From Betaproteobacteria bacterium (lineage in GTDB: Bacteria > Pseudomonadota > Gammaproteobacteria > Burkholderiales > SG8-39), in assembly GCA_016195915.1 (NCBI GenBank), contig JACPYS010000055.1, positions 516-64,515 on the forward strand: DNA of 64,000 nt. Direction: 5' to 3'. Below the pieces are notes generated by a model that was not told where the DNA came from, ran no database searches, and saw nothing but the letters and a program-made list of their open reading frames with translations. Below, piece by piece: positions 1 to 13,802 of this stretch (its first letter is position 1; each line of letters begins with the position of its first letter). Both the position numbers and the translations under genes were made by a program.

Positions 1-14
1 GCTATAATACAGAC

Positions 15-341
15 GTGAACTGGAAGGTCACCTTTTACAGCGATCGGGTCGAGGCCGAGATCAACGCACTGCCGGCCGGTCTTGTTGCTCGCTTTGTGCG
101 ATACGGCGAGCGCATGGAAATCTATGGACCCAACCTCGGAATGCCTCACACACGTTCGATGGGCGATGGGTTATTCGAGCTGAGAGTCAAGGCGGCTGAA
201 GGAATTGCACGCGTATTCTTTTGCACCGTGGTCGGGCGGCGGATCGTAGTGCTTCACCAGTTCGTGAAGAAGAGCGAAAAGACTCCGAAGAAGGAACTCA
301 AGGTCGCGAGGAATCGAATGAAGGAAATCAAAGATGACTAG
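15..341 (+). CDS. RelE/ParE-superfamily (HigB/Gp49-like) toxin
   Basis: 108 aa with GMPHTRSMGDGLFELRVK...RVFF...LHQFVKKSEKTP. Overlaps a downstream HTH gene. TATAAT at 3-8 lies just before the GTG, suggesting a leaderless transcript. Confidence 0.85.
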   Translation: MNWKVTFYSDRVEAEINALPAGLVARFVRYGERMEIYGPNLGMPHTRSMGDGLFELRVKAAEGIARVFFCTVVGRRIVVLHQFVKKSEKTPKKELKVARNRMKEIKDD

Positions 342-654
342 CACTTTCAAACAGTTTAAGGCAAAGGCGCTTGCGCGCCCGGACGTAAGATCAGCGTACG
401 ATCAACTTGCCGAGGAGTTCTCGTTTATCGATGAGGTGCTCAAGGCACGGGCTGCTTCCGGTCTGACGCAAGCGGAGTTGGCGGCGCGCGTGGGTACGAC
501 GCAATCTGCCATCGCGCGGCTAGAGTCGGGCACTCCGAAACACTCGCCTTCGATCGTGACCCTGCAGCGGTACGCTCGCGCTATGGGCTATCGAGTCGAA
601 GTCAAGCTTGTCAAGGAGCGAGGGCTAACCGAGCGTTCGAAGGGACGCGCATAG
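334..654 (+). CDS. XRE-family HTH antitoxin (HigA-like)
   Basis: GLTQAELAARVGTTQSAIARLESG helix-turn-helix. Toxin-first gene order. The C-terminus runs into an attC-like site. Confidence 0.85.
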   Translation: MTSTFKQFKAKALARPDVRSAYDQLAEEFSFIDEVLKARAASGLTQAELAARVGTTQSAIARLESGTPKHSPSIVTLQRYARAMGYRVEVKLVKERGLTERSKGRA

Positions 655-685
655 AGCCGCGCGCCCTTCAACGCGGACGTGTGCG
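623..685 (+). mobile_element. integron attC-like site (degenerate R' box)
   Basis: GGCTAAC-5nt-GTT(C)GAAG GG(A)CGCGC / GCGCGCC CTTCAAC-6nt-GTGTGCG. Shows an R'' box, L''/L' boxes with two extrahelical bases and 5/6-nt spacers. R' reads GTG instead of GTT. Confidence 0.7.
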
Positions 686-691
686 TGCTGA

Positions 692-1085
<394 letters not shown>

Positions 1086-1110
1086 CTTCGTCGCTGACGG
1101 AGGTGCCGCA

Positions 1111-3081
1111 TCATGGTTTCCGTGAGAAAGATTTCTCCTGCGCACGCGGCGCCGGCGCCGGTTTTGCGAGGCCGAGTATCGGTACGAAGTCCTTGTGCAT
1201 CTTGCGCGCATCGCCGATGCGCAGCGTGATGCCGAGTTTGTCCAGGTGTTCCAGGATTTTGATCGCGAGGGTCCTGCCGATACCGGTGGCGTCCCGATAC
1301 TGCGCAGCGGTGAACAACCCCTTCGACGCCGAGCGCGCCACGAGGGCGGCGGTGGCGGCAAGTGTGGCGAGGGTCGCCTTCGGGTAGAAGCGGTCATCGG
1401 TGACACGCATCAGTTCTCCGGCAGTGCTCTTCCGGTGCAGGAAATTCTTGAGCTTCGCCTCGTTCGTACCGAGCTTGAGCGAGAGTTCGGCGACCGTCGG
1501 TGGCGAGAAGCCGCCTTCGAGTAGCACCGGCAGCACCTCGCGCCACATCTTTTCGTCCGCCGCGTTGGAAGTCGGGTCGTGCCCGGAAAGCAGGACGTTC
1601 GAACCGCTCACGGAGAGTTTGCGCTCGTCGGCCAGACCGCGCACCAGGAACGCAAACGCGTCCGCGCTCAGCCAGGGAGCGAGTTCCTTTCTGAGAACCT
1701 GAATGTCGATGCCCGGCGCCTGCGGTTGGGCACGATGGAATTCGGCGAGGCGCGCGAGCATGCGCTCGCAAAGCGCGGTTACGCTGGCGCGCGCCACCGC
1801 CACCCGCTGCTCGCGGCCGAGGATGGCCGCATCGCACGACTTGTAAATCGACGCGGCGCGCGCGGCGGAAATATTGAAGATCACTTCGAAACGCTTGCAG
1901 TCGACCGGCTGTCCCGGAATCTTCAGCAGCGCGGCGAGCGCGGCTTCGGGCGCACCCTGCTCGAGGGCCGTCAGGGCGGCAAGCCGCGCGGGCGACGCGC
2001 GGCGGCTCGCCTGGGCCAAGGGATCGATGACGGTGCCGCCACCCAGCGTGCGCGAGGCCGACTGGTCGCGAAGAATGAAGCGATCGCCGTGGAGTGCGGC
2101 CATCGGCTGATCGAGTACGAGCTGCGCCTGCGCCGACGTGCCCGGGGCGATGGGTGCGCCCTTGACGGTGGCCACGCGCGTCAGGCCCTCTGCGGTCGCC
2201 AGGTGCAGGTGCACCGGCGTCCAGTGCTCGAGCGGCTGGCGTTCCGTCGCGAGCAGCGTGAAGCGCACGTCCATGCGCCAGCTCGGCGCGTGGATCGCCT
2301 CGTGCAGCACCCAGTCGCCGCGCGCGACCGCGCCGACGTCGACCCCCGATAGATTGATGGCGCATCGGTCCCCGGCCCGCGCCCGTTCCGCCACTTTTCC
2401 GCGGATCTGGATGCCGCGCACGCGCACCGGGAGCCCCTTCGGCGAGACCAGGAGCTGGTCGCCGGGGCGGATCTCGCCGTTGAACATCGTGCCGGTCACG
2501 ATGGTGCCGCTGCCTGCGACGCTGAATGTCCGGTCGACGGCGAGGCGGGCATGCTGTCCTTCGCGATAGCGCGCCGCTTGCGCCCTGGTCGCGTCGATCA
2601 GCGCCTGGCGCAAAGGCTCGATGCCTGCACCAGTGACCGCGGAAACCGGGAGCAGGGGGATTGCCGCGAGCGGGGAATCGGCAAGCAGCGCTCGCAGTTC
2701 CGCCTTGACCTGATCAACCCGCGCGGGATCGACGCGGTCGATCTTGGTGATGGCGGCGACCCCGCGGCCGATGCCAAGCAGGCTGAGGATCTGAAGATGC
2801 TCCACCGTCTGCGGCATCACCCCGTCATCCGCCGCGACGGCCAGCAGCGCGAAATCGATGCCGCACACCCCCGCGAGCATGTTGTGGATGAAGCGTTCGT
2901 GGCCGGGAACGTCGACGAATCCGATCAGTGCGCCATCGGCAAGCGGCAAGTAGGCGAAGCCGAGGTCGATCGAGATGCCGCGGGCTTTTTCTTCGGGCAG
3001 GCGGTCGGTGTCCACGCCCGTCAAGGTCTTCACCAGCAGCGTCTTGCCGTGGTCGATGTGGCCCGCGGTGGCGACGATCAT
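1111..3081 (-). CDS. selB: selenocysteine-specific translation elongation factor SelB
   Basis: [45 protein letters not shown], and a C-terminal winged helix [23 protein letters not shown]; 656 aa. Confidence 0.96.
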
Positions 3082-3097
3082 GTTTCTGACGTCCGGT

Positions 3098-4021
3098 TCA
3101 GCGCTGCGAGCTGGCGAGCATTTCCTGCGCGCGTTTGGCGGCCGCTTTTCCGTCGGACACGGCGGCCGAAACCTGGCGCGGCGACCCGCTCCTCACGTCA
3201 CCGGCGGCGTATGCGCCGGAAACATCGGTTTCGAACTGCTCGTTCACAGTGATCCGACCCGAATCGTCGAGCATAAACACGCCCTCGAGATAGCCGGTCG
3301 TGGGCGCATAGCCGACGTGAACCAGCACGCCGTAGACGCCCAGCGTCTCTCGTTTTCCGGTCGCCGCATTTTCGACCACGAGGCCGGTGACGCCTTCCCT
3401 GCCAATGATTTCAACCGGCTTCTCTCCGAGGCGGATTTCCAGCTTTGCATTGGCCAGGGCGCGCGCCTGCAGCACCGGTCTGGCGCTCAATTGCGACTGC
3501 GCTTCGAAGACGAAGACTTTCGACGCAAATCTCGCCAGGTACAGCGCCTCGATGAGTCCTGCGTTTCCGCCGCCGCACACCGCCACCACCCGGTCACGGT
3601 ACAACCCGGCGTCGCACATGGCGCAGTGAATCATGCCTTTGCCCTGAAATTCTTCCTCGCCCGGGATGCCGAGTTTGCGGGAATGCAGCCCGCCGGCCTG
3701 AATCACGACCGACGACGTGTAGGCCCTGCCATCGGCGCAACTGACGGAGATGCAACCGGAATAAGGCTCGATCTCGACCACCTCGGCCAATTCCATCTCC
3801 ACGCCCAATTGTTCGGCCTGCTTCACCATCTCCGAGGCGAGCATCGCGCCCGCTACCTTTTCGCCCGGACGCGGGTAGCCGTTGAGCCACTCGATGTTGA
3901 CGATCGGCCCGCCGAACGATTCCTTCTCCAGCAGCAGCACGCGGTGGCCTGCCTGCGCAAGTTCGGTGCCGGCGGACAAGCCTGCCGGTCCGCCGCCGAT
4001 CACGATCGCGTCGTATTCCAT
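3098..4021 (-). CDS. thioredoxin-reductase/AhpF-like FAD-dependent disulfide reductase
   Basis: [15 protein letters not shown], redox CAMCD motif, GGGNAG, AAGD. Start taken at ATG 4021. Co-oriented with selB, 16 nt gap. Confidence 0.9.
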
Positions 4022-4133
4022 TGCATGGTCCTTGTTGCAGAGTAATTTGAGGCGCGCAAGCTTGACGCTGTGCGACGATTGCATTAAACATTGACGCTCC
4101 AGTGCAATCAACTGTTTCGAACGAGGAGGCAGC

Positions 4134-5834
4134 ATGAACGTGGGCGTGGAAACCAGCCAGCGAAGAGCAGATTACGAGGTGTTGAGCCCGTGGGCCGACG
4201 CGGATCCAGTTCCGCTGCGCGGAATCGCGACGCGCCCGGCCGACGTTTCCGGCAGGAAGATCGGCCTGTTCTCCAACCGCAAGCGCGCCGCGGAGCTGAC
4301 ATTGAGCGCGTTCGAACGGCAGTTGCTGGAAAAGTATCCCGCGGCACAGACCTCGTGGTACGCGTGCAGCACGATCAACACCCCGGAGATGCTGACCGAA
4401 GGCAAGGCGAAGTTCGAAGCCTGGGTGGCGGGCGTCGACGCGGTCGTGCTTTCGGTCGCGGACTGAGGCTCATGCACTAAGTTCCTCGTGCACGATGCAA
4501 TATCCGTTGAGGACTTGCATCGGCCCGCTGTGGTACTGGCGAACGAGGGCTTCGTGACGGACGGGCGGTCTGCCGCGTCGAACAAGGGGATGCCGACAGT
4601 GCGCATCGTGCCGGAGACGGTCCCCTGTGAATGCAGTGTCAAGGAAGATGTGGAGGCTGGCATCGGTTCGGTCATGGCTCAGATCATCGACGCCCTGACG
4701 AACCCCCTTTCTGCCGAAGAACAGGCACCGAAAAGGAAGGAGAAGGGAACGCCCTCGAGAATCGCCTTCAAAGGGCGGTTGGAGGAGTTCGACCGTTTCT
4801 TCTACAAGCGCGGCTGGGGCGACGGCCTGCCGATGCGGCCGCCGACCGAGTCCGCGGTGAGGCAGATGCTGGCGGGGACCGACTTTCCACCCGAGCATGT
4901 CGTCGGCGAGATCGATCCGCGTCGCGGCAAGGCGACGATCGAGAAGATCGCGGTCAATGCCGTCATGGCCGGCGCCTTGCCGACGCACATGCCCATTCTG
5001 ATCGCGTGCGTGGAGGCCCTCGCCGATCCGCGCGCCCATCTGGGCGCCTACGGCACCAGCACCGGTTCGTGGATGCCTTTCTGGATCATCAACGGCCCGG
5101 TGCGCAACGATGCGCGCGTGAACTGCAGTTCCGGCGCGATGAGCCCGGGGGACATCGCCAATGCCGCGATCGGCCGGACCATGGGCCTCATCGTCAAGAA
5201 CGTCGGCGGGGCGCGCAAGGCGATCGAGGATATGGGTGTTTACGGCAACCCGGGAAAGTACTCCTGCGTCGCAGGTGAGAACGAGGAGAACAGCCCATGG
5301 GAACCGCTGCACGTCGAACAGGGATTTGCGAGGGAAGACAGCGCCGTCACGCTGTTCTTCCCGAACTGCTATGCGCAGATCTGGCAGTACGGTTCGGACG
5401 ACAAGGGAATACTCGGCACACTGATCTACAACCTTCCGCCGGGGAGAAGCGGCCTTACCTGCCTCCTGATGACCCCCACCCAGGCGAATACGCTGGCGCA
5501 GAAAGGCTGGACGAAGCCGATGATCCGGAAGTACGTGTACGAGTACGGGCGGGTGTCCGCTTACCGTCACCCGAGCTTCCACGACGGCGGCGGCTGGACC
5601 GGCAGAAGTCCGGAAACCGTACCGCCGAACGCCATGGACGCGGTGGCGATCGTGCCGAGCCCGGAACACATCAGGATTCTGGTATTGGGCGGGCCGGGTG
5701 CGTTCATGGGGCTTGCCTGCGGCGGCGGCCTGCCTGGCGGTCAGTTCGTGACCAAGAAGGTCAGTCTGCCTTCAGGGTGGGCCAAGCTGGTGGCAAAATA
5801 CAGGAGCTTGGTCCCGGCCTACGAAAGGTACTAG
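4134..5834 (+). CDS. UGSC-family selenoprotein fusion, copy 1 (566 aa, Sec at codon 111, TGA 4464-4466)
   Basis: ORFs 4134-4466 and 4488-5834 are in the same frame, separated only by TGA GGC TCA TGC ACT AAG TTC CTC, giving VLSVAD-U-GSCTKFL. RBS GAGGAG precedes 4134 and none precedes 4488. The C-terminal part has the conserved GWGDGLP..PPT / NAVMAG / GNPGKY domain. Confidence 0.9.
4473..4522 (+). promoter_or_regulatory. candidate SECIS (two adjacent hairpins) of selenoprotein copy 1
   Basis: H1 is TGCAC..GTGCA (4473-4492, loop contains AGTTCC). H2 is CGATGCAA-TA-TCC-GTTGA-GGA-C-TTGCATCG (4493-4522). Confidence 0.65.
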
Positions 5835-5961
5835 GCGCGGTTTTGTTGATCCATGTCGCCGTTTTTCCGCGCATTCGCGCTCGATTGGTTTGACAGTGTG
5901 CGGCGTGGGCATCGAATATGAAGTTCCGGTCGCGGTTGACTGTTTCGAACGAGGAGAAATC

Positions 5962-7659
5962 ATGAATGTTGGCGCGGAGGTATCGCAGCGCAGCGCAGAA
6001 TACGAGGTCTTGAGTCCGTGGGCCGACGCCGATCCCGTGCCATCGCGGGGGATTACATCACGGCCCAGGGATCTCGCGGGCAAGAAGATCGGCCTGTACC
6101 TGAATCACAAGCGCGCCGGGCACTTGTCGTTGAGCGCATTCGAACGGGAGTTGCTCGAAAGGGTCCCTTCCGCGACGACTTCCTGGTACCCCTGCACCGG
6201 GCACAACGTTCCGGAGATGCTGACCGAAGGCAAGGCGAAGTTCGAAGCCTGGGTCGGCAGCGTCGACGCGGTCGTGCTCTCGGTCGCGGACTGAGGCTCA
6301 TGCACGAAGTTCCTCGTGCACGATGCAATATCCGTTGAGGACTTGCATCGGCCCGCTGTAGTACTGGCGAACGAGGGCTTCGTGACGGACGGGCGGTCTG
6401 CCGCGTCGAACAAGGGGATGCCGACAGTGCGTATCGTGCCGGAGACGATTCCCTGTGAATCCAGCGTCAAGGAAGATGTCGACGCCGGTATCCATCTGGC
6501 GATGGACCAGATCATCGAAGCGTTGACAAAGCCCCTTTCGGCGGAAGAGCAGGCGCCGAAAAGAAAGGGAAAGGAAAAGCCCTCCAGGATCGTTTTCAAA
6601 GGGCAATTGGGGGAGCTGAACCGCTTCATCTACAAGAGGGGTTGGGGCGATGGCCTGCCCGTGCTTCCCCCGACGGAATCCGCGGTGCGGGAGATGCTGG
6701 CAGGCACCGACTTGCCACCGCAGCACGTCGTCGGCGAGATCGTGCCGCGCCACGGCAAGGCGACGGTCGAGAAGATCGCCATCAATGCCGTCATGGCCGG
6801 CACTCTGCCCACGCACATGCCCATCCTGATCGCGTGCGTCGAGGCGGTTACGGATCCGCTCGTCGATCTGGGCACCTTTGGCACGAGCACCGGTTCGTGG
6901 GCACCTTTCTGGATCATCAACGGGCCGGTCCGAAATGACGTGCACGTGAACTGCGGCTCCGGGGCCCTGAGTCCCGGCGACATTGCCAATGCCGCGATCG
7001 GCAGAGCGATGTGCCTGATCATCAAGAACATCGGCGGCGGGCGCAAAGCGGTCGAGGACATGGGCGTGTTCGGCAACCCCGGCAAGTATTCCAGCGTGAT
7101 CGGGGAAAACGAAGAAAGCAGCCCGTGGGATCCGCTGCATGTCGAACAGGGATTCGCGCGGGACGAGAGCGCGGTGACGCTTTTCTTTCCGAATTCCTAC
7201 TCGCAGCTTTGGCAGTACGGCTCCGACGACGTGGGAATCCTCAGCACCTTGATCTACAACCTCCTGCCCGGAAGGGGCGGGTTGTCGTGCCTTCTGATCA
7301 CCCCGCCGCAGGCGAAGACGCTGGCGAAGAAGGGCTGGACGAAGCAGATGATCAGCAAGTACGTGTTCGAATACGGACGCGTTCCCGCCTATCGTCACCG
7401 ATTCTTCCATGGGGTCGCGCAGGCGCACGGAAGCCTTGGAGTTGTTCCGCCGAATGCGATGGATTCGATGCCGATCATTCCGAGCCCGGATCACATCAGG
7501 ATACTGGTGACCGGGGGACCCGGCGCGTTCGTGGGCCTTGCCTGCGGGGCGGGCCTGCCCGGGCGGGAGTTCGTGACGAAGAAGATCGGATTTCCGGCCG
7601 ACTGGATCAAGCTGGTCGCGAAGTACAAGAGCTTTGTTCCTGCGTACGAAAAGTATTGA
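5962..7659 (+). CDS. UGSC-family selenoprotein fusion, copy 2 (565 aa, Sec at codon 111, TGA 6292-6294)
   Basis: ATG 5962 follows GAGGAG. In-frame TGA, then GGC TCA TGC ACG AAG, continues into ORF 6316-7659. Full-length paralog of copy 1. Confidence 0.9.
6301..6350 (+). promoter_or_regulatory. candidate SECIS (two adjacent hairpins) of selenoprotein copy 2
   Basis: TGCACGA-AGTTCC-TCGTGCA (perfect 7-bp stem), followed by an H2 identical to that of copy 1. Confidence 0.65.
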
Positions 7660-7687
7660 GACCGGAAACTGTCGAGGCGAGGGCGGC

Positions 7688-8689
7688 ATGAAGAGATCAG
7701 CCATCATTGTTGCCGTCTTCGCTTGGCTGGTTTCGTCCGGTTTTCCGGCGAGTTGGGCCGCCGAGGATGATTATCCCGTAAGACCGATCCAGCTCATCGT
7801 TCCTTTCGCTGCGGGCGGCAGCCTGGACATCACCGCTCGCGTCGTGGGGCAGAAACTGCGGGAATATCTGGGTCAGCAACTTGTCATCGTCAACCGACCC
7901 GGCGCGGGAAGCGCGGTTGGCGCACGGTTCCTGGCAAGTTCCCCGCCGGACGGTTATACGATTTACCTCGCTTCCGGCTCGACCTTCGGGTTTCTTCACC
8001 TGCTGGTTCCCGGCTTCCCCTACCAACTCAAGGATTTCGCCCCGATTGCCGCCATCGCTACGAATACCTCCGTATTCGCTGTGAATGCCGAGGTTCCCGT
8101 GAATTCGCTTCCCGAACTGGTCGCCTACGTTCAGAAAAATCCCGGCAAGCTCAACTTCTGCACCACCGGCCTGGGTGGACTCAATCACCTTCAATTCGAA
8201 ATGTTCAAGACTTTGGTGAAGGAAAAGCACGGCGGTTTGCAGTTGGATCTCCCTCACGTACCCTACAACGGCGTCGCACCGGCGCTCACGGCGCTGCGGG
8301 GAAATCAGGTGCAGGTCTGTACTCTGCCCTACAGCAGCCTGCTGAAGAACAGCGACGGCAAGGGCATCCGCATGATCGCGATCATGCGACCGCAGCGGTT
8401 AGCGTCGATCGCGCACGTGCCGGCTTGCGCAGAACAGGGGTTTGCGGAAATGGATGGCAACAATTCCATGGTCAATTTCACTGCTCCTGCCGACACGCCG
8501 GCGCCGATACTCGCAAAGCTGGAGACGGCGCTCCAGAAGACGATGCAGGACAACGAAGTTCGCCAAAAGCTGGAGGACATCGACGCTGCGCCGACGTTCC
8601 TGAGCGCCAGGGAAATGAAGGAATGGCTCGAAGGAGATGTGCGCAAATGGGAAATGATCATCAGGAATGCGAACATGGTCGTGAAATAG
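7688..8689 (+). CDS. Bug/TctC tripartite tricarboxylate transporter substrate-binding protein
   Basis: Signal peptide, YPVRPIQLIVPFAAGGSLD, NRPGAG, PPDGYT, HVPYNG. Confidence 0.9.
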   Translation: MKRSAIIVAVFAWLVSSGFPASWAAEDDYPVRPIQLIVPFAAGGSLDITARVVGQKLREYLGQQLVIVNRPGAGSAVGARFLASSPPDGYTIYLASGSTFGFLHLLVPGFPYQLKDFAPIAAIATNTSVFAVNAEVPVNSLPELVAYVQKNPGKLNFCTTGLGGLNHLQFEMFKTLVKEKHGGLQLDLPHVPYNGVAPALTALRGNQVQVCTLPYSSLLKNSDGKGIRMIAIMRPQRLASIAHVPACAEQGFAEMDGNNSMVNFTAPADTPAPILAKLETALQKTMQDNEVRQKLEDIDAAPTFLSAREMKEWLEGDVRKWEMIIRNANMVVK

Positions 8690-8729
8690 GGATCAGTTTC
8701 AAACCCCTTCATTGACCGCCGCAGTCGCC

Positions 8730-9701
8730 ATGAAGCGCCAAAAGACCCTGGTCTGCTTGTTCGGACTGTGCGCGCTCTTTGCCGCCGTGCCGGCGATGTC
8801 GCAGACCTACCCGAAGGGCGTGGTCAACATCGTCGTGGGTGCCACGCCCGGTGGCCCGACCGATTTTGTCGCGCGCATCGTCGCGCAGCAGCTGCAGGAA
8901 CTCTGGGGGCAGTCGGTCCTGGTTGTGAACAAGCCCGGCGCGGGCGGCACGATTGCGGGCGACGCCGTGGCAAAGTCCGCGCCCGACGGGCACACGATCG
9001 GGATTGAGACCACCACGCACGTAATCAACCCGACGCTGCGCGCGGCGACCATTCCGTACGACACTCCGAAGGATTTCGCGTATATCACGCAGCTGGTCGG
9101 CCAGCACGTGGTGCTGGTCGCGAACGCCGCCGAGCCGTTCAATACCGTGAGGCAGATGATCGCGTATGCGAAATCGAATCCGGGGAAGCTGACCTACGCC
9201 TCGCCCACCGCCGGCACCGCTTCTCATCTGGCGGCCGAAATGCTCAAGAGCGAAGCCGGCATCGACATGGTGCACGTGCCCTACAAGGGCAGCGGCCCCG
9301 CGCAGACCGACCTCGTGGCCGGGCGCGTGGACGTCATGTTCGACGTCTACCACTCGGCGAAGCAGCTCGCCGAACAAGGCAAGCTCAAAATCATAGCGCT
9401 CGCGAGCGAGACCCAGCCGGACAACATCAAGGGCTATCCTCTCGTCTCCGATACGATCCCCGGGTTCAACGTGACGAGCTTCTTCGGGCTGGTCACGCGC
9501 GCCGGCACTCCGCGCCCGGTGATCGACAGGATCCAGGAGGATGCCGCGAGGGGAATCAGCAAGCCGGAGGTCAAGGCGCGGCTCGAGGGCGTCGGGATGA
9601 AGGTTCTTGGCACTACGCCGGCCCAATTCGAGGGTTTCGTGCGCGCCGAACTGGCCAAGTGGGCGAGGGTGATCCGGGCCGGCAATATCAAGGCGGAATA
9701 G
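8730..9701 (+). CDS. Bug/TctC substrate-binding protein
   Basis: Signal peptide, TPGGPTD, NKPGAGG, APDGHT, HVPYKGSGP, C-terminal IKAE. Confidence 0.92.
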   Translation: MKRQKTLVCLFGLCALFAAVPAMSQTYPKGVVNIVVGATPGGPTDFVARIVAQQLQELWGQSVLVVNKPGAGGTIAGDAVAKSAPDGHTIGIETTTHVINPTLRAATIPYDTPKDFAYITQLVGQHVVLVANAAEPFNTVRQMIAYAKSNPGKLTYASPTAGTASHLAAEMLKSEAGIDMVHVPYKGSGPAQTDLVAGRVDVMFDVYHSAKQLAEQGKLKIIALASETQPDNIKGYPLVSDTIPGFNVTSFFGLVTRAGTPRPVIDRIQEDAARGISKPEVKARLEGVGMKVLGTTPAQFEGFVRAELAKWARVIRAGNIKAE

Positions 9702-9731
9702 AGCGGGTGGGCAGCGTTGTCACCGCGCGCC

Positions 9732-10094
9732 TCAGGGCGCAAACCGAACGAACCGCTGCGGCACCTGCACCCGCATGCCGAGCAGGAGAAACGAGTTGCT
9801 CTTGCCGTGGCCGTCGACGTTGAGACTGCCGTTGACGCCGCCTTCGAGTACGTCTTCGATCACGAAGTTGAGCGCCGGCAACAGCGGCAGATCATAGCGC
9901 TTGACGCGCGTTGCGCCGCGATGCGCGAACAGTTCGAACACCCGCTGTTCGGTGAGCTGTTCGGCAATGACCGGATACGCATCGTTGTCATACGGCATCA
10001 CGCTGATGTTGAGGCGGTTGCCCTTGTCGCCGGCGCGTGCGTGAGCGACACAGTGCAGCGGGACGCTCGCCAGAGTATCGTCGGAACGGCTCAT
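9732..10094 (-). CDS. AtuA-related small (C-terminal domain) protein
   Basis: AHARAGDKGN...LNFVIEDVLEGGVNGSLNVDGHGKS; ATGA overlap with the upstream AtuA-like gene. Confidence 0.8.
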   Translation of the reverse strand: MSRSDDTLASVPLHCVAHARAGDKGNRLNISVMPYDNDAYPVIAEQLTEQRVFELFAHRGATRVKRYDLPLLPALNFVIEDVLEGGVNGSLNVDGHGKSNSFLLLGMRVQVPQRFVRFAP

Positions 10095-11473
10095 CGTGCA
10101 AGCTCCGCCGCAGTGAAAACCCGGCTTCCCGGCGCCAGATCGCCGGGGGGCATCAGGTAGGACTGCGTCCTGATGCGCGGCGTGGTGCGCCAGCGCACGC
10201 CGCCGCCGCCGGCGGGTCCGCAGCAGTACAGCGCCAGTACCTCGCGTGCGGCCTGGTCTGCGTCGTCCTGCGTGCGCGCCGATACGGCGAGCCGAACGCG
10301 CACGTCGTCCGGGCTGCCACCCTCGTAAGTGCGCCATTTCGTGCCGCGGTCGCCATCATGCACGCTCGCGACACCGATCAGGTCGACGCGCGGCTTGACC
10401 TCGAGCTTGCGCATGCGTAGGCGTTCAAGGAGTACTTCCGCCGCGGCGCGGGCGCGCGCAAGGCAGTTCGGTCCTGCGTAGGAGATTTCGCCTTCCCCCA
10501 TCCAGCCGCCGTCGAAGCACACCGTGGCCTTGACCTTTTCGGGCGCAGGGCCGCCGCGAACGCCGAGTACCTCGACCCGGTCGGTTGCGATCTCGCGCAC
10601 GGATACCTGAGTGAAATCGAGTGTGACGTCGGGAGTGATGTAATTGGAAGGATCGTGGATCTCGTAGAGCAGCTGTTCCTTCACCACCTGGGCATTCACG
10701 ACCCCGCCCGTGCGCGCGGCCTTGGTGATTACGAGGCTCCCGTCGGACCCGACTTCCGCAATCGGAAAGCCGATATTCGCCGGGTCGGGGATGTCCTTGA
10801 AGCCGGGGTCGTAGTAGTAACCGCCGGTGATCTGCGCGCCGCACTCGAGCAGGTGGCCTGCCGTCGCGCCCACCGCAAGGCGCGCCCAATCGTCGAAACG
10901 CCAGCCGAAGTGATGAATCAGCGGCGCCAGGGCGAGCGAAGGATCTCCCGTCCGGCCGGTCACGACAATCTGGGCTCCCGACGCAAGCGCATCGACCATC
11001 GGACGCGCCGACAGGTAGGCGTTCGCGGAAACAATTTCGCCGTCTCCCGTGTCCAGCGCTGCGTCGGCCTCGTAGACCGGGAGGGAGGCGAGGTCGATGC
11101 GTTCGCGCACATCGTCGCCATGCACGACGCCGATCTTCAACTCCGGCATGCCCAGCCGCAACGCCAGCTGCGCGATCACCCGGGCAGCGCCGGGCGGGTT
11201 GGCCGCCCCGAAATTGCCGATGATCGGGATCGCGTGCCCGGCACATCGCTTCAGTATCGGCTCGAGCAGGCGCTCCAGCATGGGTTCGTATCCGCGCAAG
11301 GGATCGCGCCGTTTCTCGAGTTGTGCCAGCGCCACCGTGCGTTCCCCGAGCACCTCGAAAAACACTGCACAAGGGCCTCCCAATTCGATCAGCGTGTCGA
11401 CCACCGGACCCGGTGCGTCCACCCGATCGCCGGAAAACCCCGCGCAGTTGCCTATTCGGAACATATCTGGCAC
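10091..11473 (-). CDS. acyclic terpene utilization AtuA-family (DUF1446) protein
   Basis: RIGNCAGFSGDR, GHLLECGAQITGGY, IGFPIAEV, EQLLYEIHDP..YITPDV, GPAGGGG. Confidence 0.88.
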   Translation of the reverse strand: MPDMFRIGNCAGFSGDRVDAPGPVVDTLIELGGPCAVFFEVLGERTVALAQLEKRRDPLRGYEPMLERLLEPILKRCAGHAIPIIGNFGAANPPGAARVIAQLALRLGMPELKIGVVHGDDVRERIDLASLPVYEADAALDTGDGEIVSANAYLSARPMVDALASGAQIVVTGRTGDPSLALAPLIHHFGWRFDDWARLAVGATAGHLLECGAQITGGYYYDPGFKDIPDPANIGFPIAEVGSDGSLVITKAARTGGVVNAQVVKEQLLYEIHDPSNYITPDVTLDFTQVSVREIATDRVEVLGVRGGPAPEKVKATVCFDGGWMGEGEISYAGPNCLARARAAAEVLLERLRMRKLEVKPRVDLIGVASVHDGDRGTKWRTYEGGSPDDVRVRLAVSARTQDDADQAAREVLALYCCGPAGGGGVRWRTTPRIRTQSYLMPPGDLAPGSRVFTAAELAR

Positions 11474-11612
11474 GTTTTCACCTCCGAAGCTTGGTTTCTT
11501 GCTCCATTTCAGCCCGCTCGCGTGCGGGAGTCTGGCTTTCGCTTATCCGGTGACGCGCGCGCCGCTAGCCTTTATCCTAGATACCTGCGAAATTCGCACA
11601 CGGGACGATCTG

Positions 11613-13802
11613 GTGGCAACTATAAGGAAAATTGCGGTCAGCACGGGCATCTTCTGGATTGAGGTGCCGGAGGCCGATTTGCGCGTGCTGTGCGGGTGCC
11701 CGGTCGACTCGGTCAAGCATCTGCTGCGCAGAGGGCTGATCGTGCCGATCGAGGTAAAGGGCGTCGCCAGCGAGACCGGACCGAACGCGATCCTGCTCTC
11801 GGACCTCCCGATCCAGAACGGAAGGCTATGCAGCCACTCGGAGTTCCCGGTCCTGCAGATGCTCTACATGCAGGGCATGATCGTTCCGGGGCATCCGAAC
11901 AACGTCGGGCTGCGGCCGATGCTCATCGGTGCGCGCGGGCAGGTGGACGCCCAGATGTCCTATATATACCGCGGGAACTACGGTCTGGTGTCCGCGGACG
12001 AGCTGGCGGCGGCGGGGATCGAGCGCGAGCAGGCCGACGAGCTGATGCGGATCAAGCTGGCGTTCGCCTTCGGCGTGATCCGTTCCACCGAGGAGCTGTT
12101 GCAGGCGGTTTACGTCGAGAACGCCCCGGCCGAGATCCGCAATGGGGTGTTCGTGCGCAGGCTGCGCACCAACGTATTCGAGTTTTCCTTCGCCGGGGAG
12201 CATGTCGAGGTCGACCTCAACCTGGCCCAGGAGCAGATCTTCGAGTGCCCGTACACGCTCGACATGCACCTGCTCGATCGGGAGTACTTCGCGGTGGTGC
12301 ACACCGGCGACGGCGACGGCTGGGACATGAACCGGCCGACGATGGGAAGCATTCTGTTGCATCAGGGCCACGTGTATGTCGTGGACGCGGGGCCGAACAT
12401 CGATTACGCGCTTACCGCGCTGGGAATCGGCATCAACGAGATCGACGGCATCTTCCACACCCATGGCCACGACGACCATTTGGCAGGTTTGACCTCGCTC
12501 ACGCGCGGAGACCGGCGCATCGCCTATTACGCGGCGCCGATGGTGCGCGCTTCGGTGTTCAAGAAACTCGCTGCCGCGATGCAGTTCTCGGAGCGCGACC
12601 TCGACGAACTGTTCGACATCCGCGACCTGCGGATCGACGAATGGAACGACATCGAAGGGCTGGAGGTGCGGCCGATCATCTCGCCGCATCCGGTCGAAAC
12701 CACCGTTTTCTACTTCAGGGTGAAATGGGAAGGCGGCTACCGCAGCTACGCGCATTTGGCGGACATCGCCTCGGTCCGGGTGATGCGCAACATGCTCGCC
12801 GCCGATGGCGCGCGCGCGGGAATCAACCCGGCCTGGATGACGAGGACGATCGAGGCCTACCGGGAGAAGGCCGACATCAAGAAGATCGACATCGGCGGCG
12901 GGTTGATCCACGGCGAGGCGGAGGATTTTCGCGGCGATCCGTCCGGAAAACTTATTCTCGCCCATACCTCGAGGCGGCTCACCGAGAAGGAACGCACCAT
13001 CGGATCGGGGGCGCCGTTCGGCACGGTGGACGTGCTGATCAAGGGGGTCTCCGACGTTTTCCGGCGCCGGGCATTCGAGTTTCTGCGCGACTATTTCCCG
13101 GACGTGCCGTTGCACCGCCTCCGCCACCTGATGAACTGCGAGATCGTGGTGTGCAACCCGGAAGTGCTGCTGATCCGCAGCGGGCAGGCCGTGGACAACG
13201 TCTATCTGGTGCTCAGCGGCACGGTCGAGATGCTTCGCCACGGCGTGGCGGGTGCGAGCCAGCTTTCGGCCGGTTCAGTCATCGGGGAGACCCCTGCGCT
13301 GCTCGGCACCGAGTGCGGCGAGACCTACCGCGCGGTGAGCTTCGTGCGCGCCCTCCGCCTCCCGGTCGACCTGTACCGTGACTTCGCGATGCACAGCACG
13401 CTTTACCCCCAGATCTTCCAGTCGCGCGACAAGCGGGAGGATCTGCGCCGCGCATGGCTGTTCGCGGACGGCGTGTCCTGCGTCACGCTCAACCGGCTGG
13501 TGAATGCCGCGGACCACGCGCACTTTTCGCAAGACGAGGTCGTCGGGCTGCCGGAACGGGAGGTTCTGATTTTGCGCTCGGGACACGCGCAGCACATTTC
13601 GGCCTCCCATCAGGTCGAGCCGCTCGCGGCCAGCAATCACTTCGGCGGGCTCGAGCTCTCCCCGGGCGCGGGACGCGGTGCCAGCGTGCGGTTTCTCGAA
13701 TTGGCCCAGGCGTACCGCCTGCCGCTCGAGCTCGTCGCCGAATTGCCGGTGGTACGGTGGAAACTGATCGAGACCCACCGGCGCCGGTATCGAGGCCGCT
13801 AG
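11613..13802 (+). CDS. MBL-fold metallohydrolase with two cyclic-nucleotide-binding domains
   Basis: FHTHGHDDH (HxHxDH), SPHPVET, ILAH metal ligands. C-terminal cNMP-like segments VYLVLSGTVEM..GSVIGE and ILRSG..NHFGG. Start placed at GTG 11613; the upstream extension is antisense to atuA. Confidence 0.75.
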   Translation: MATIRKIAVSTGIFWIEVPEADLRVLCGCPVDSVKHLLRRGLIVPIEVKGVASETGPNAILLSDLPIQNGRLCSHSEFPVLQMLYMQGMIVPGHPNNVGLRPMLIGARGQVDAQMSYIYRGNYGLVSADELAAAGIEREQADELMRIKLAFAFGVIRSTEELLQAVYVENAPAEIRNGVFVRRLRTNVFEFSFAGEHVEVDLNLAQEQIFECPYTLDMHLLDREYFAVVHTGDGDGWDMNRPTMGSILLHQGHVYVVDAGPNIDYALTALGIGINEIDGIFHTHGHDDHLAGLTSLTRGDRRIAYYAAPMVRASVFKKLAAAMQFSERDLDELFDIRDLRIDEWNDIEGLEVRPIISPHPVETTVFYFRVKWEGGYRSYAHLADIASVRVMRNMLAADGARAGINPAWMTRTIEAYREKADIKKIDIGGGLIHGEAEDFRGDPSGKLILAHTSRRLTEKERTIGSGAPFGTVDVLIKGVSDVFRRRAFEFLRDYFPDVPLHRLRHLMNCEIVVCNPEVLLIRSGQAVDNVYLVLSGTVEMLRHGVAGASQLSAGSVIGETPALLGTECGETYRAVSFVRALRLPVDLYRDFAMHSTLYPQIFQSRDKREDLRRAWLFADGVSCVTLNRLVNAADHAHFSQDEVVGLPEREVLILRSGHAQHISASHQVEPLAASNHFGGLELSPGAGRGASVRFLELAQAYRLPLELVAELPVVRWKLIETHRRRYRGR

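Follow-up and report, generated by a model that had tools for sequence, protein, structure and literature searches.

Six genes at one end of a 64,000-nucleotide stretch of a draft Betaproteobacteria genome (contig JACPYS010000055.1, positions 516 to 64,515; hereafter the window) are interpreted here as a reductase module for an imported solute, comprising a cytoplasmic, selenocysteine (Sec)-dependent two-domain reductase in two tandem copies and its own electron-input enzyme. The genes encode the elongation factor SelB, a thioredoxin reductase-like (TrxR-like) flavoprotein, two selenoproteins in which a UGSC domain is fused to an unannotated C-terminal domain (termed Cdom), and two Bug/TctC periplasmic binding proteins (Table 1). 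This interpretation is given an even chance of being correct. An earlier note on the same DNA had proposed a self-contained Sec-dependent reductive pathway with a parallel to the Stickland reductases; it is supported in part, by the selenoproteins, the reductase clade, the uptake genes and the clustering with sel genes, whereas the self-containment and the Stickland link were not borne out.

The in-frame TGA codons

Each selenoprotein gene contains a single in-frame TGA in the context SVAD-U-GSCTKF, giving the motif A-D-U-G-S-C, and the reading of both codons as Sec is well supported by comparison with homologous genes. A scan of one genome per GTDB species yielded 360 confirmed loci; the 79 that were fetched are without exception records of metagenome-assembled genomes (MAGs) or single-amplified genomes (SAGs). 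TGA occupies the same codon in 90 of the 91 homologous copies found at these loci across several phyla, the 91st being cut by a contig end, which argues that the in-frame TGA is not there by chance. The codons on both sides of the TGA are conserved across the homologous copies, the D-U-G-S/A-C motif is present in nearly all of the 90 related copies, and full-length homologues with cysteine at the Sec position exist (P0039, P0086, P0134 and P0250).

Downstream of each TGA lies a region resembling a Sec insertion sequence (SECIS). The stem of its hairpin (alignment columns 10-16 with 23-29) is paired in 82.7% of cells across 84 distinct sequences, compared with 13-59% for slid controls, and the loop G at column 18 (G18), which is the third base of a Lys codon, is invariant. 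In 14 Burkholderiales-like copies, the 20 codons that follow the TGA show a third-position conservation of 0.84-0.94 versus 0.55-0.77 elsewhere, and the ten codons before the TGA combine an amino-acid conservation of 0.94 with a third-position conservation of only 0.61. The two selenoproteins of the window are 77% identical in protein sequence and 79% identical in DNA overall, with DNA identity rising to 97-98% over 180 nt around the TGA. Combined, the retention of TGA, the cysteine forms, the hairpin and the conservation of synonymous sites agree with the earlier description of these UGA-readthrough fusions as real selenoprotein genes.

Table 1. Features of the locus in window coordinates
Feature	Position	Strand	Remarks
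selB, selenocysteine-specific elongation factor	1111-3081	-	656 aa; TIGR00475 399.8 bits (cut-off 242.25)
TrxR-like FAD disulfide reductase	3098-4021	-	307 aa from ATG at 4021; Pyr_redox_2 145.5 bits
Intergenic gap separating the reductase-selB unit from the divergent selenoprotein genes	4022-4133		112 bp; read from sequence
Selenoprotein 1	4134-5834	+	566 aa; UGSC domain at about residues 16-189 fused to unannotated Cdom of about 370 aa
In-frame TGA of selenoprotein 1	4464-4466	+	predicted Sec (U111)
SECIS-like region of selenoprotein 1	4473-4525	+	predicted fold; hairpin 4473-4492 with AGUUCC loop, then second hairpin
Selenoprotein 2	5962-7659	+	565 aa; tandem paralogue of the same architecture; terminal stop also TGA
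In-frame TGA of selenoprotein 2	6292-6294	+	predicted Sec (U111)
SECIS-like region of selenoprotein 2	6301-6353	+	predicted fold, -26.5 kcal/mol, z -2.66
Bug/TctC periplasmic solute-binding protein 1	7688-8689	+	PF03401 180 bits (threshold 27); open frame 7634-8689
Bug/TctC periplasmic solute-binding protein 2	8730-9701	+	PF03401 210.6 bits (threshold 27); open frame 8712-9701

The UGSC-Cdom pair and its TrxR-like neighbor

The N-terminal domains of selenoproteins 1 and 2 (residues 16-189) match the Pfam UGSC family PF24696 with 97.2 and 88.3 bits, respectively, against a gathering score of 25, and score 77.7 and 67.6 bits against the NCBIfam equivalog NF041046, below its cut-off of 125; on the Pfam model, higher scores (126-159 bits) are reached by the stand-alone UGSC genes at other places in the genome. 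The C-terminal Cdom has no Pfam match even at E 10, NCBIfam recognizes only the UGSC part, and a Cdom profile gave 0 matches at E 10 among PDB sequences. A HMMER search with the C-terminal 372 residues against 1.84 billion cluster representatives found 4,614 matches at E<=0.001 (870 at E<=1e-30), and a word-indexed search with a stand-alone Cdom paralogue returned more than 7,000, of which those listed were all annotated as "hypothetical protein" with no Pfam domain. The ESM Atlas yielded unnamed clusters only, with no usable match among the named clusters. Two Burkholderiales genomes each hold a large number of Cdom matches (34 in G010 and 20 in G030), an expansion whose scale is reminiscent of the Bug family.

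To describe the architectures in which Cdom occurs, 22 representatives were chosen from the 150 best matches so as to cover the length classes and were scanned with Pfam. Six consist of Cdom alone (about 350-370 aa), six are uninterrupted UGSC-Cdom proteins (557-619 aa), and three have the reversed order Cdom-UGSC and break off at profile position 92, the site of the Sec. A further six are long forms without a family (616-741 aa), of which P0140 (717 aa) proved to be a Cdom-Cdom tandem when its sequence was read. In the remaining protein, P0166 (494 aa), the catalytic-chain domain of ferredoxin:thioredoxin reductase (FTR; PF02943, 61.3 bits) is found in place of UGSC, from which it is concluded that Cdom draws on a disulfide-type redox partner. 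This FTR domain carries CPC and CHC motifs. None of the seven Cdom copies in the genome of the window stands apart from UGSC: each is either fused to a UGSC gene or its direct neighbor, and six of these UGSC genes contain the TGA. UGSC and Cdom are concluded to form one functional module, an obligate pair that is fused in either order or encoded by neighboring genes. A second, more distant UGSC-like/Cdom family (30-34% identity) was seen in 10 of the 79 loci, for example at L075:7116-7481 followed by a Cdom match at 7506-8636; its N-terminus resembles a signal peptide, and it may be an exported version of the module.

AlphaFold2 models reached a pLDDT of 85.6 for the whole of selenoprotein 1 and 86.3 for Cdom. 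The modeled N-terminal domain has five alternating strands and helices, and its best structural matches (Z 8.2-10.7) are generic three-layer alpha/beta domains; a thioredoxin fold is proposed for UGSC in PMC2398784, and no thioredoxin appeared among the 50 structural matches listed. Across 67-68 Cdom sequences, about 50 positions are invariant, with Gly, Pro, Asn, Arg, Glu and Trp prominent among them.

The reductase beside selB is distinct from the housekeeping thioredoxin reductase. Against the TrxB equivalog TIGR01292 it scores 260.5 bits, below the cut-off of 343.45, compared with 385 bits for the genome's own trxB (contig C50), and AhpF-type models score 185-223 bits on it. Its identity is 30% to the genome's own TrxB (30-32% when a second paralogue is included) and 45-86% to the reductases adjacent to fusion genes at other loci across phyla. 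Together, 21 such fusion-neighbor reductases form a single clade with a support of 100/99 in a tree with two outgroup rows only, and both cysteines of the redox motif CAMC (residues 133-136; C133 and C136) are invariant among the 21. Judged by sequence, the reductase belongs to a dedicated TrxR-like clade and is not housekeeping TrxB. At the position of the NADPH motif, the genome's own TrxB carries VAVVHRRDRFRA (the HRRDRFRA stretch), HRRxxxR being the NADPH-binding motif of TrxB; the window reductase lacks it and has VFEAQ instead, with E173 being nearly invariant throughout the TrxR-like clade. Because an acidic Glu replaces the NADPH motif, a use of NADH by this clade may be guessed.

Neighboring genes were surveyed at the 79 loci by tblastn with the window proteins and by clustering of the open reading frames (ORFs) within 8 kb of the fusion gene. 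Taxon groups were set from record titles, and four oddly titled records were placed with the Burkholderiales-like group on the strength of 83-87% identity. The TrxR-like gene is the commonest neighbor, being found in 29 of the 79 loci and in every taxon group defined: 13 of 17 Burkholderiales-like, 7 of 29 Deltaproteobacteria/Desulfobacterota, 6 of 17 Chloroflexota, 1 of 10 Acidobacteriota and 2 of 6 other loci. Of the 46 loci whose flanks both reach 3 kb or more, 22 have it no farther than 3 kb away, and outside the Burkholderiales it is often 27-400 nt downstream of the fusion gene on the same strand. These results support the earlier note in linking a flavin disulfide reductase to the UGSC-fusion genes, as a dedicated TrxR-like clade travels with these genes across phyla. 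A complex prediction between the TrxR-like protein and the UGSC domain of the cysteine homologue P0039 (residues 1-195) gave a score of 0.01, which counts neither way.

Proposed electron path and competing explanations

In the proposed mechanism, electrons would flow from a pyridine nucleotide (possibly NADH) to the FAD and the CAMC dithiol of the TrxR-like protein, and from this dithiol to the U111-x-x-C114 selenenylsulfide of the UGSC domain. The selenol of U111 would then attack a small solute held by the fused Cdom, with the solute, probably a carboxylate, being brought by the two Bug binding proteins.

The part played by uptake is suggested by the surroundings of the module. Solute-binding genes from three unrelated families occur within 8 kb in 27 of the 79 loci (SBP_bac_5 in 12, TctC in 11 and DctP in 6), with TctC neighbors confined to the Burkholderiales-like loci. 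Within the genome of the window, a Bug gene is adjacent at four of six module loci and a TRAP system at one; three of the in-genome paralogue modules stand beside Bug genes. The module at G000:C30:25187-29021 (L118 ~5167-11022; G000 being the window's own genome) lies in a row with genes for a family-III CoA-transferase and the TRAP proteins DctPQM, opposite a second, divergent TrxR-like gene, and the one at G000:C7:44766-48727 (L120 ~6767-10727) lies by an epimerase- or SDR-like gene, opposite a Fer2/FAD/NAD gene of the ferredoxin-reductase type (FNR-type).

A broader proposal, which is advanced tentatively and regarded as possible but doubtful, is that a large unrecognized superfamily of substrate-specific (seleno)reductases has UGSC and Cdom at its core, with thousands of clusters at 50% identity and up to 34 matches per genome. 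Each module might be tuned to a different imported solute and be fed by a dedicated TrxR-like, ferredoxin-type or FTR-like donor, and the Sec trait (selA, selB and selC) might be kept mainly for this family in this Burkholderiales lineage.

Several observations weigh against a reductase for imported solutes and against the decoding on which it depends. Uptake genes are absent within 8 kb in 50 of the 79 loci, and because the window's genome has at least 150 Bug/TctC genes (235 candidates; the 150 that were scored all exceeded the cut-off), a neighboring Bug gene carries little weight by itself. The earlier note's association with Bug proteins is thus weak on its own; what supports a link to uptake is the recurrence of solute-binding genes at other loci. 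The TrxR-like gene is missing from 50 of the 79 loci and from 24 of the 46 well-flanked ones, and therefore either is not obligatory or is replaced by other reductants. Covariation in the downstream hairpin does not exceed that of shuffled controls among the 84 distinct sequences, and an Rfam scan of window positions 1-12000 returned no SECIS family, with one chance-level miRNA row only. For Cdom, a Foldseek search of the PDB gave a best E of 1.2e-3 and a TM of 0.23 to class I fumarate hydratases, a resemblance of the model that may serve as a lead only; a wide VIA-align search gave a best Z of 6.7 over 73 residues, and none of the 48,161 chains compared reached Z 8; and a second structural look again reached a best Z of 6.7, covering only the sub-domain of residues 212-337. 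Cdom has no invariant Cys, no His-rich site and no structural relative that hints at its chemistry. In 14 full-length, non-Sec distant relatives (alignment A6), Sec is replaced by Cys in four and by Ala (seven relatives), Gly, Ser, Val or Phe in the other ten, and therefore not every member of the superfamily has the U/C-x-x-C couple; 12 of the 14 retain the downstream Cys of G-S-C.

Five approaches failed to find the tRNA gene selC in the assembly. The best match to RF01852 across the genome (46.7 bits) was called tRNA-Ser by ARAGORN, ARAGORN at lowered thresholds produced hundreds of false calls, two home-made pattern scans gave no match in the genome, blastn with selC from five relatives gave no match longer than 15 nt, and a DNA search of G000 gave no match. 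Additionally, Rfam found no match around selA, selD and the contig end, and the site syntenic to selC of a same-genus genome carries no tRNA in G000. This result is not informative, since tRNA-Ile and tRNA-Tyr are likewise missing among the 42 tRNAs of the assembly and the contig ends about 1.6 kb past selB.

Of the competing explanations, a general redox defence of the AhpF/AhpC or thioredoxin type against peroxides, disulfide stress or electrophiles, in which there would be no imported substrate and the Bug genes would be bystanders, is considered improbable. A UxxC motif with a TrxR-like partner does resemble thiol peroxidase and thioredoxin systems, as do the scores of the AhpF-type models given above, and both the abundance of Bug genes in the genome and the 50 loci without an uptake gene would be accommodated. 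However, a diversified specificity is the better fit for seven paralogous modules in one genome and for two relatives with 20-34 Cdom matches, three unrelated binding-protein families recur at the locus across phyla, one paralogue forms an operon-like row together with genes for a CoA-transferase and a TRAP transporter, and no match to a peroxiredoxin or thioredoxin family was found.

An explanation in which Cdom is a redox client or scaffold, such as a cofactor carrier or assembly factor, that is kept reduced by UGSC and has no small-molecule substrate of its own is likewise thought unlikely. It would account for the constant pairing of Cdom with a redox domain and for the lack of a recognizable active-site signature or structural relative, but the invariant positions described above suggest a conserved pocket rather than a passive client, and Cdom offers no conserved Cys to keep reduced.

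The modules linked to sel genes could instead handle selenium, reducing or releasing it from an imported compound to feed SelD, which would explain the clustering with sel genes; this is held to be quite unlikely. In its favor, selB adjoins the module in 12 of the 79 loci, of which 10 belong to the Burkholderiales-like group of 17; selA is present in 5 of the 79 loci, and half of the 12 selB loci (6) have a selC called by ARAGORN. Directly after selA in the window's genome come another Cdom-UGSC pair and then a Bug gene, and in a genome of the same genus selC follows a TrxR-like paralogue (G002:C54:186766-186861; L123 1501-1596), directly after the orthologue of the second TrxR-like gene found on C30 of G000. 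Against a role in selenium supply, 67 of the 79 loci are not near sel genes, selD lies outside the cluster, and the many paralogues with varied neighbors (SDR, CoA-transferase, esterases and glycyl-radical enzymes) fit poorly with a single task. The linkage resembles the common arrangement in which the main selenoprotein gene of a lineage clusters with the sel genes, the pattern reported for fdh-selABC in PMC8124441.

That the TGA codons are true stops, producing 110-aa fragments and separately started 448-aa proteins or marking decay after loss of selC, is very improbable: selC was not found and public gene callers predict a downstream ORF of 412-455 aa in most of the 120 best matches, but the TGA and its flanking codons are kept across phyla, full-length Cys forms exist, selA, selB and selD are intact, and the missing selC says little when ordinary tRNAs are missing as well.

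Sec machinery, known systems and further features of the locus

The window's own genome is a draft assembly of 67 contigs and 6.84 Mb in which the Sec genes are dispersed. selA (C47:34079-35440; 567 bits) and selD (C54:84709-85638; 431 bits) both score above their cut-offs on other contigs, and the selB of the window is the only TIGR00475 match above the cut-off genome-wide, the next being 184 bits in a 396-aa frame. A Sec-type formate dehydrogenase (FdoG) was not found in the genome, since of 29 matches none is above the cut-off and none has an in-frame stop, and the UGSC-type genes are the only selenoprotein genes found. The presence of selB at the locus is therefore explained by these being the sole selenoprotein genes found, and not by its being a private factor; the description of the locus as self-contained and carrying its own decoding factor accordingly does not hold. 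A search for further sel genes, along the lines of the check suggested in the earlier note, located selA and selD elsewhere, with neither a second selB nor selC found in the assembly.

In 41 related genomes, Cdom and selB occur together in 10, Cdom only in 3, selB only in 4 and neither in 24; where both occur, the distance from selB to a Cdom gene is at most 15 kb in 6 of the 10 genomes, the genomes surveyed being kin and not independent. The order at locus L031 is selB and the TrxR-like gene, then the divergent fusion gene, selA and selC.

The genes of the locus belong to a known family and stand in a context not previously described. According to PMC1976440, PMC2398784, PMC9312934 and PMC13188914, UGSC (PF24696, NF041046) is a selenoprotein family of unknown function; lists of the most abundant selenoproteins in aquatic metagenomes have included it from 2005-2008 onward (PMC2398784, PMC1976440, PMC13188914), and a 2026 review (PMC13188914) still calls its function unknown. 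The window proteins resemble this family in an N-terminal domain above the PF24696 threshold, a U-G-S-C motif with TGA-encoded Sec and the existence of Cys homologues, and differ from it in the fused Cdom and in scores below the NF041046 cut-off. A "UGSC/Unknown_1" fusion is mentioned in Figure S1A of a 2008 paper (PMC2398784), in which Unknown_1 may or may not correspond to Cdom. In the literature searched, no description was found of the TrxR-like partner, of split or reversed forms, of the FTR-type fusion or of linkage to sel genes. The word "undescribed" in the earlier note thus applies to the genomic context, within the parts of the literature consulted, and not to the UGSC family or to the fusion mentioned in 2008.

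With TrxB (TIGR01292) and AhpF, the window reductase shares a full-length Pyr_redox_2 domain, a CxxC motif and the gene-level pairing with a small U/C-x-x-C redox domain; it differs from TrxB in its model score, its low identity to the genome's TrxB and the lack of HRRDRFRA, and its presumed client is not a thioredoxin-family match. The glycine/sarcosine/betaine and D-proline reductases of Stickland metabolism contain the UxxC selenoproteins GrdB and PrdB, which are reduced via the thioredoxin system. The Sec in UxxC, a substrate-specific protein, an accompanying TrxR and small carboxylates make these systems a working analogy only; the domain make-up is different, and the hosts of the window's module include Burkholderiales with large Bug repertoires, not only fermenters. 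PrdB is listed as a UxxC protein in Table 2 of PMC2398784. No sequence link to GrdB or PrdB was found: parts of Cdom and four full-length homologues gave no GRDB (PF07355), GRDA or Gly_reductase match at E<=10, although the HMMER filters drop most matches above about E 0.1, so that a very remote relation to GRDB could escape. The Stickland parallel drawn in the earlier note therefore lacks a sequence link. The fdh-selABC(D) clusters of Proteobacteria are similar in placing Sec-decoding genes beside the selenoprotein gene of the lineage, as selA, selC and selB flank the fusion gene in relatives of the window; here the linked selenoprotein is a UGSC fusion with a TrxR-like gene and not formate dehydrogenase, so that in this lineage it is the UGSC family with which the Sec machinery is associated.

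With a dedicated flavoprotein reductase, an obligate partner domain and binding proteins, the locus makes the long-open question of UGSC function directly testable. The ligands of the Bug proteins could name the substrate, and the partner domain Cdom is one with no Pfam model and no solved structure.

The six-gene map of the earlier note was recovered gene by gene through ORF listing, translation and family scans, as was its divergent gap, and a consensus scan of that gap gave no promoter-like site. The family scans (Pfam and NCBIfam) covered 12 ORFs between 1 and 13.8 kb of the window, and no selA, selC, selD, formate dehydrogenase or thioredoxin family was found among them, in agreement with the absence stated earlier. 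The selB product carries the Pfam domains GTP_EFTU, Beta-barrel_SelB, SelB-wing_2 and SelB-wing_3, that is, an EF-Tu-like GTPase with winged-helix domains. The open frame of the reductase extends to 4135, beyond its ATG, and the likely ATG starts of the two Bug genes are each followed by a hydrophobic, signal-like N-terminus as judged by eye. Between selB and the contig end (window 3-654 and 668-1085), a Gp49-like/HTH toxin-antitoxin pair was identified with Pfam, and what may be a second small toxin-antitoxin remnant was noticed by eye only. An insertion may have displaced selC, since relatives carry selC where this toxin-antitoxin stretch lies.

Two further arrangements of sel genes were seen in relatives. 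In L024, selC (171-263, +) is convergent to selB and seemingly overlaps its 3' end (match ending at 256, -), and the same is seen in L035 (selC 11067-11159, +; selB match ending at 11134, -), the selB ends being taken from tblastn matches and not from checked stop codons. A "reversed" selC/selB overlap of this kind is reported for some Gammaproteobacteria in Mukai 2021 (PMC8124441). Additionally, two selB genes flank the fusion locus in a Burkholderiales MAG (L035; selB at 5940-7805, +, and a second selB-like match at ~11134-13092, -) and in a Desulfobacteraceae MAG (L081; 8936-10789, -, and 12945-14834, +), and genome G022 has two selB matches. The second copy in L035 is a tblastn match only, in a stretch that holds a stop; the three other copies from L035 and L081 were scanned and are full-length, with TIGR00475 scores of 423, 380 and 365 bits. 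A duplicated SelB beside a selenoprotein gene could be a specialized decoding factor.

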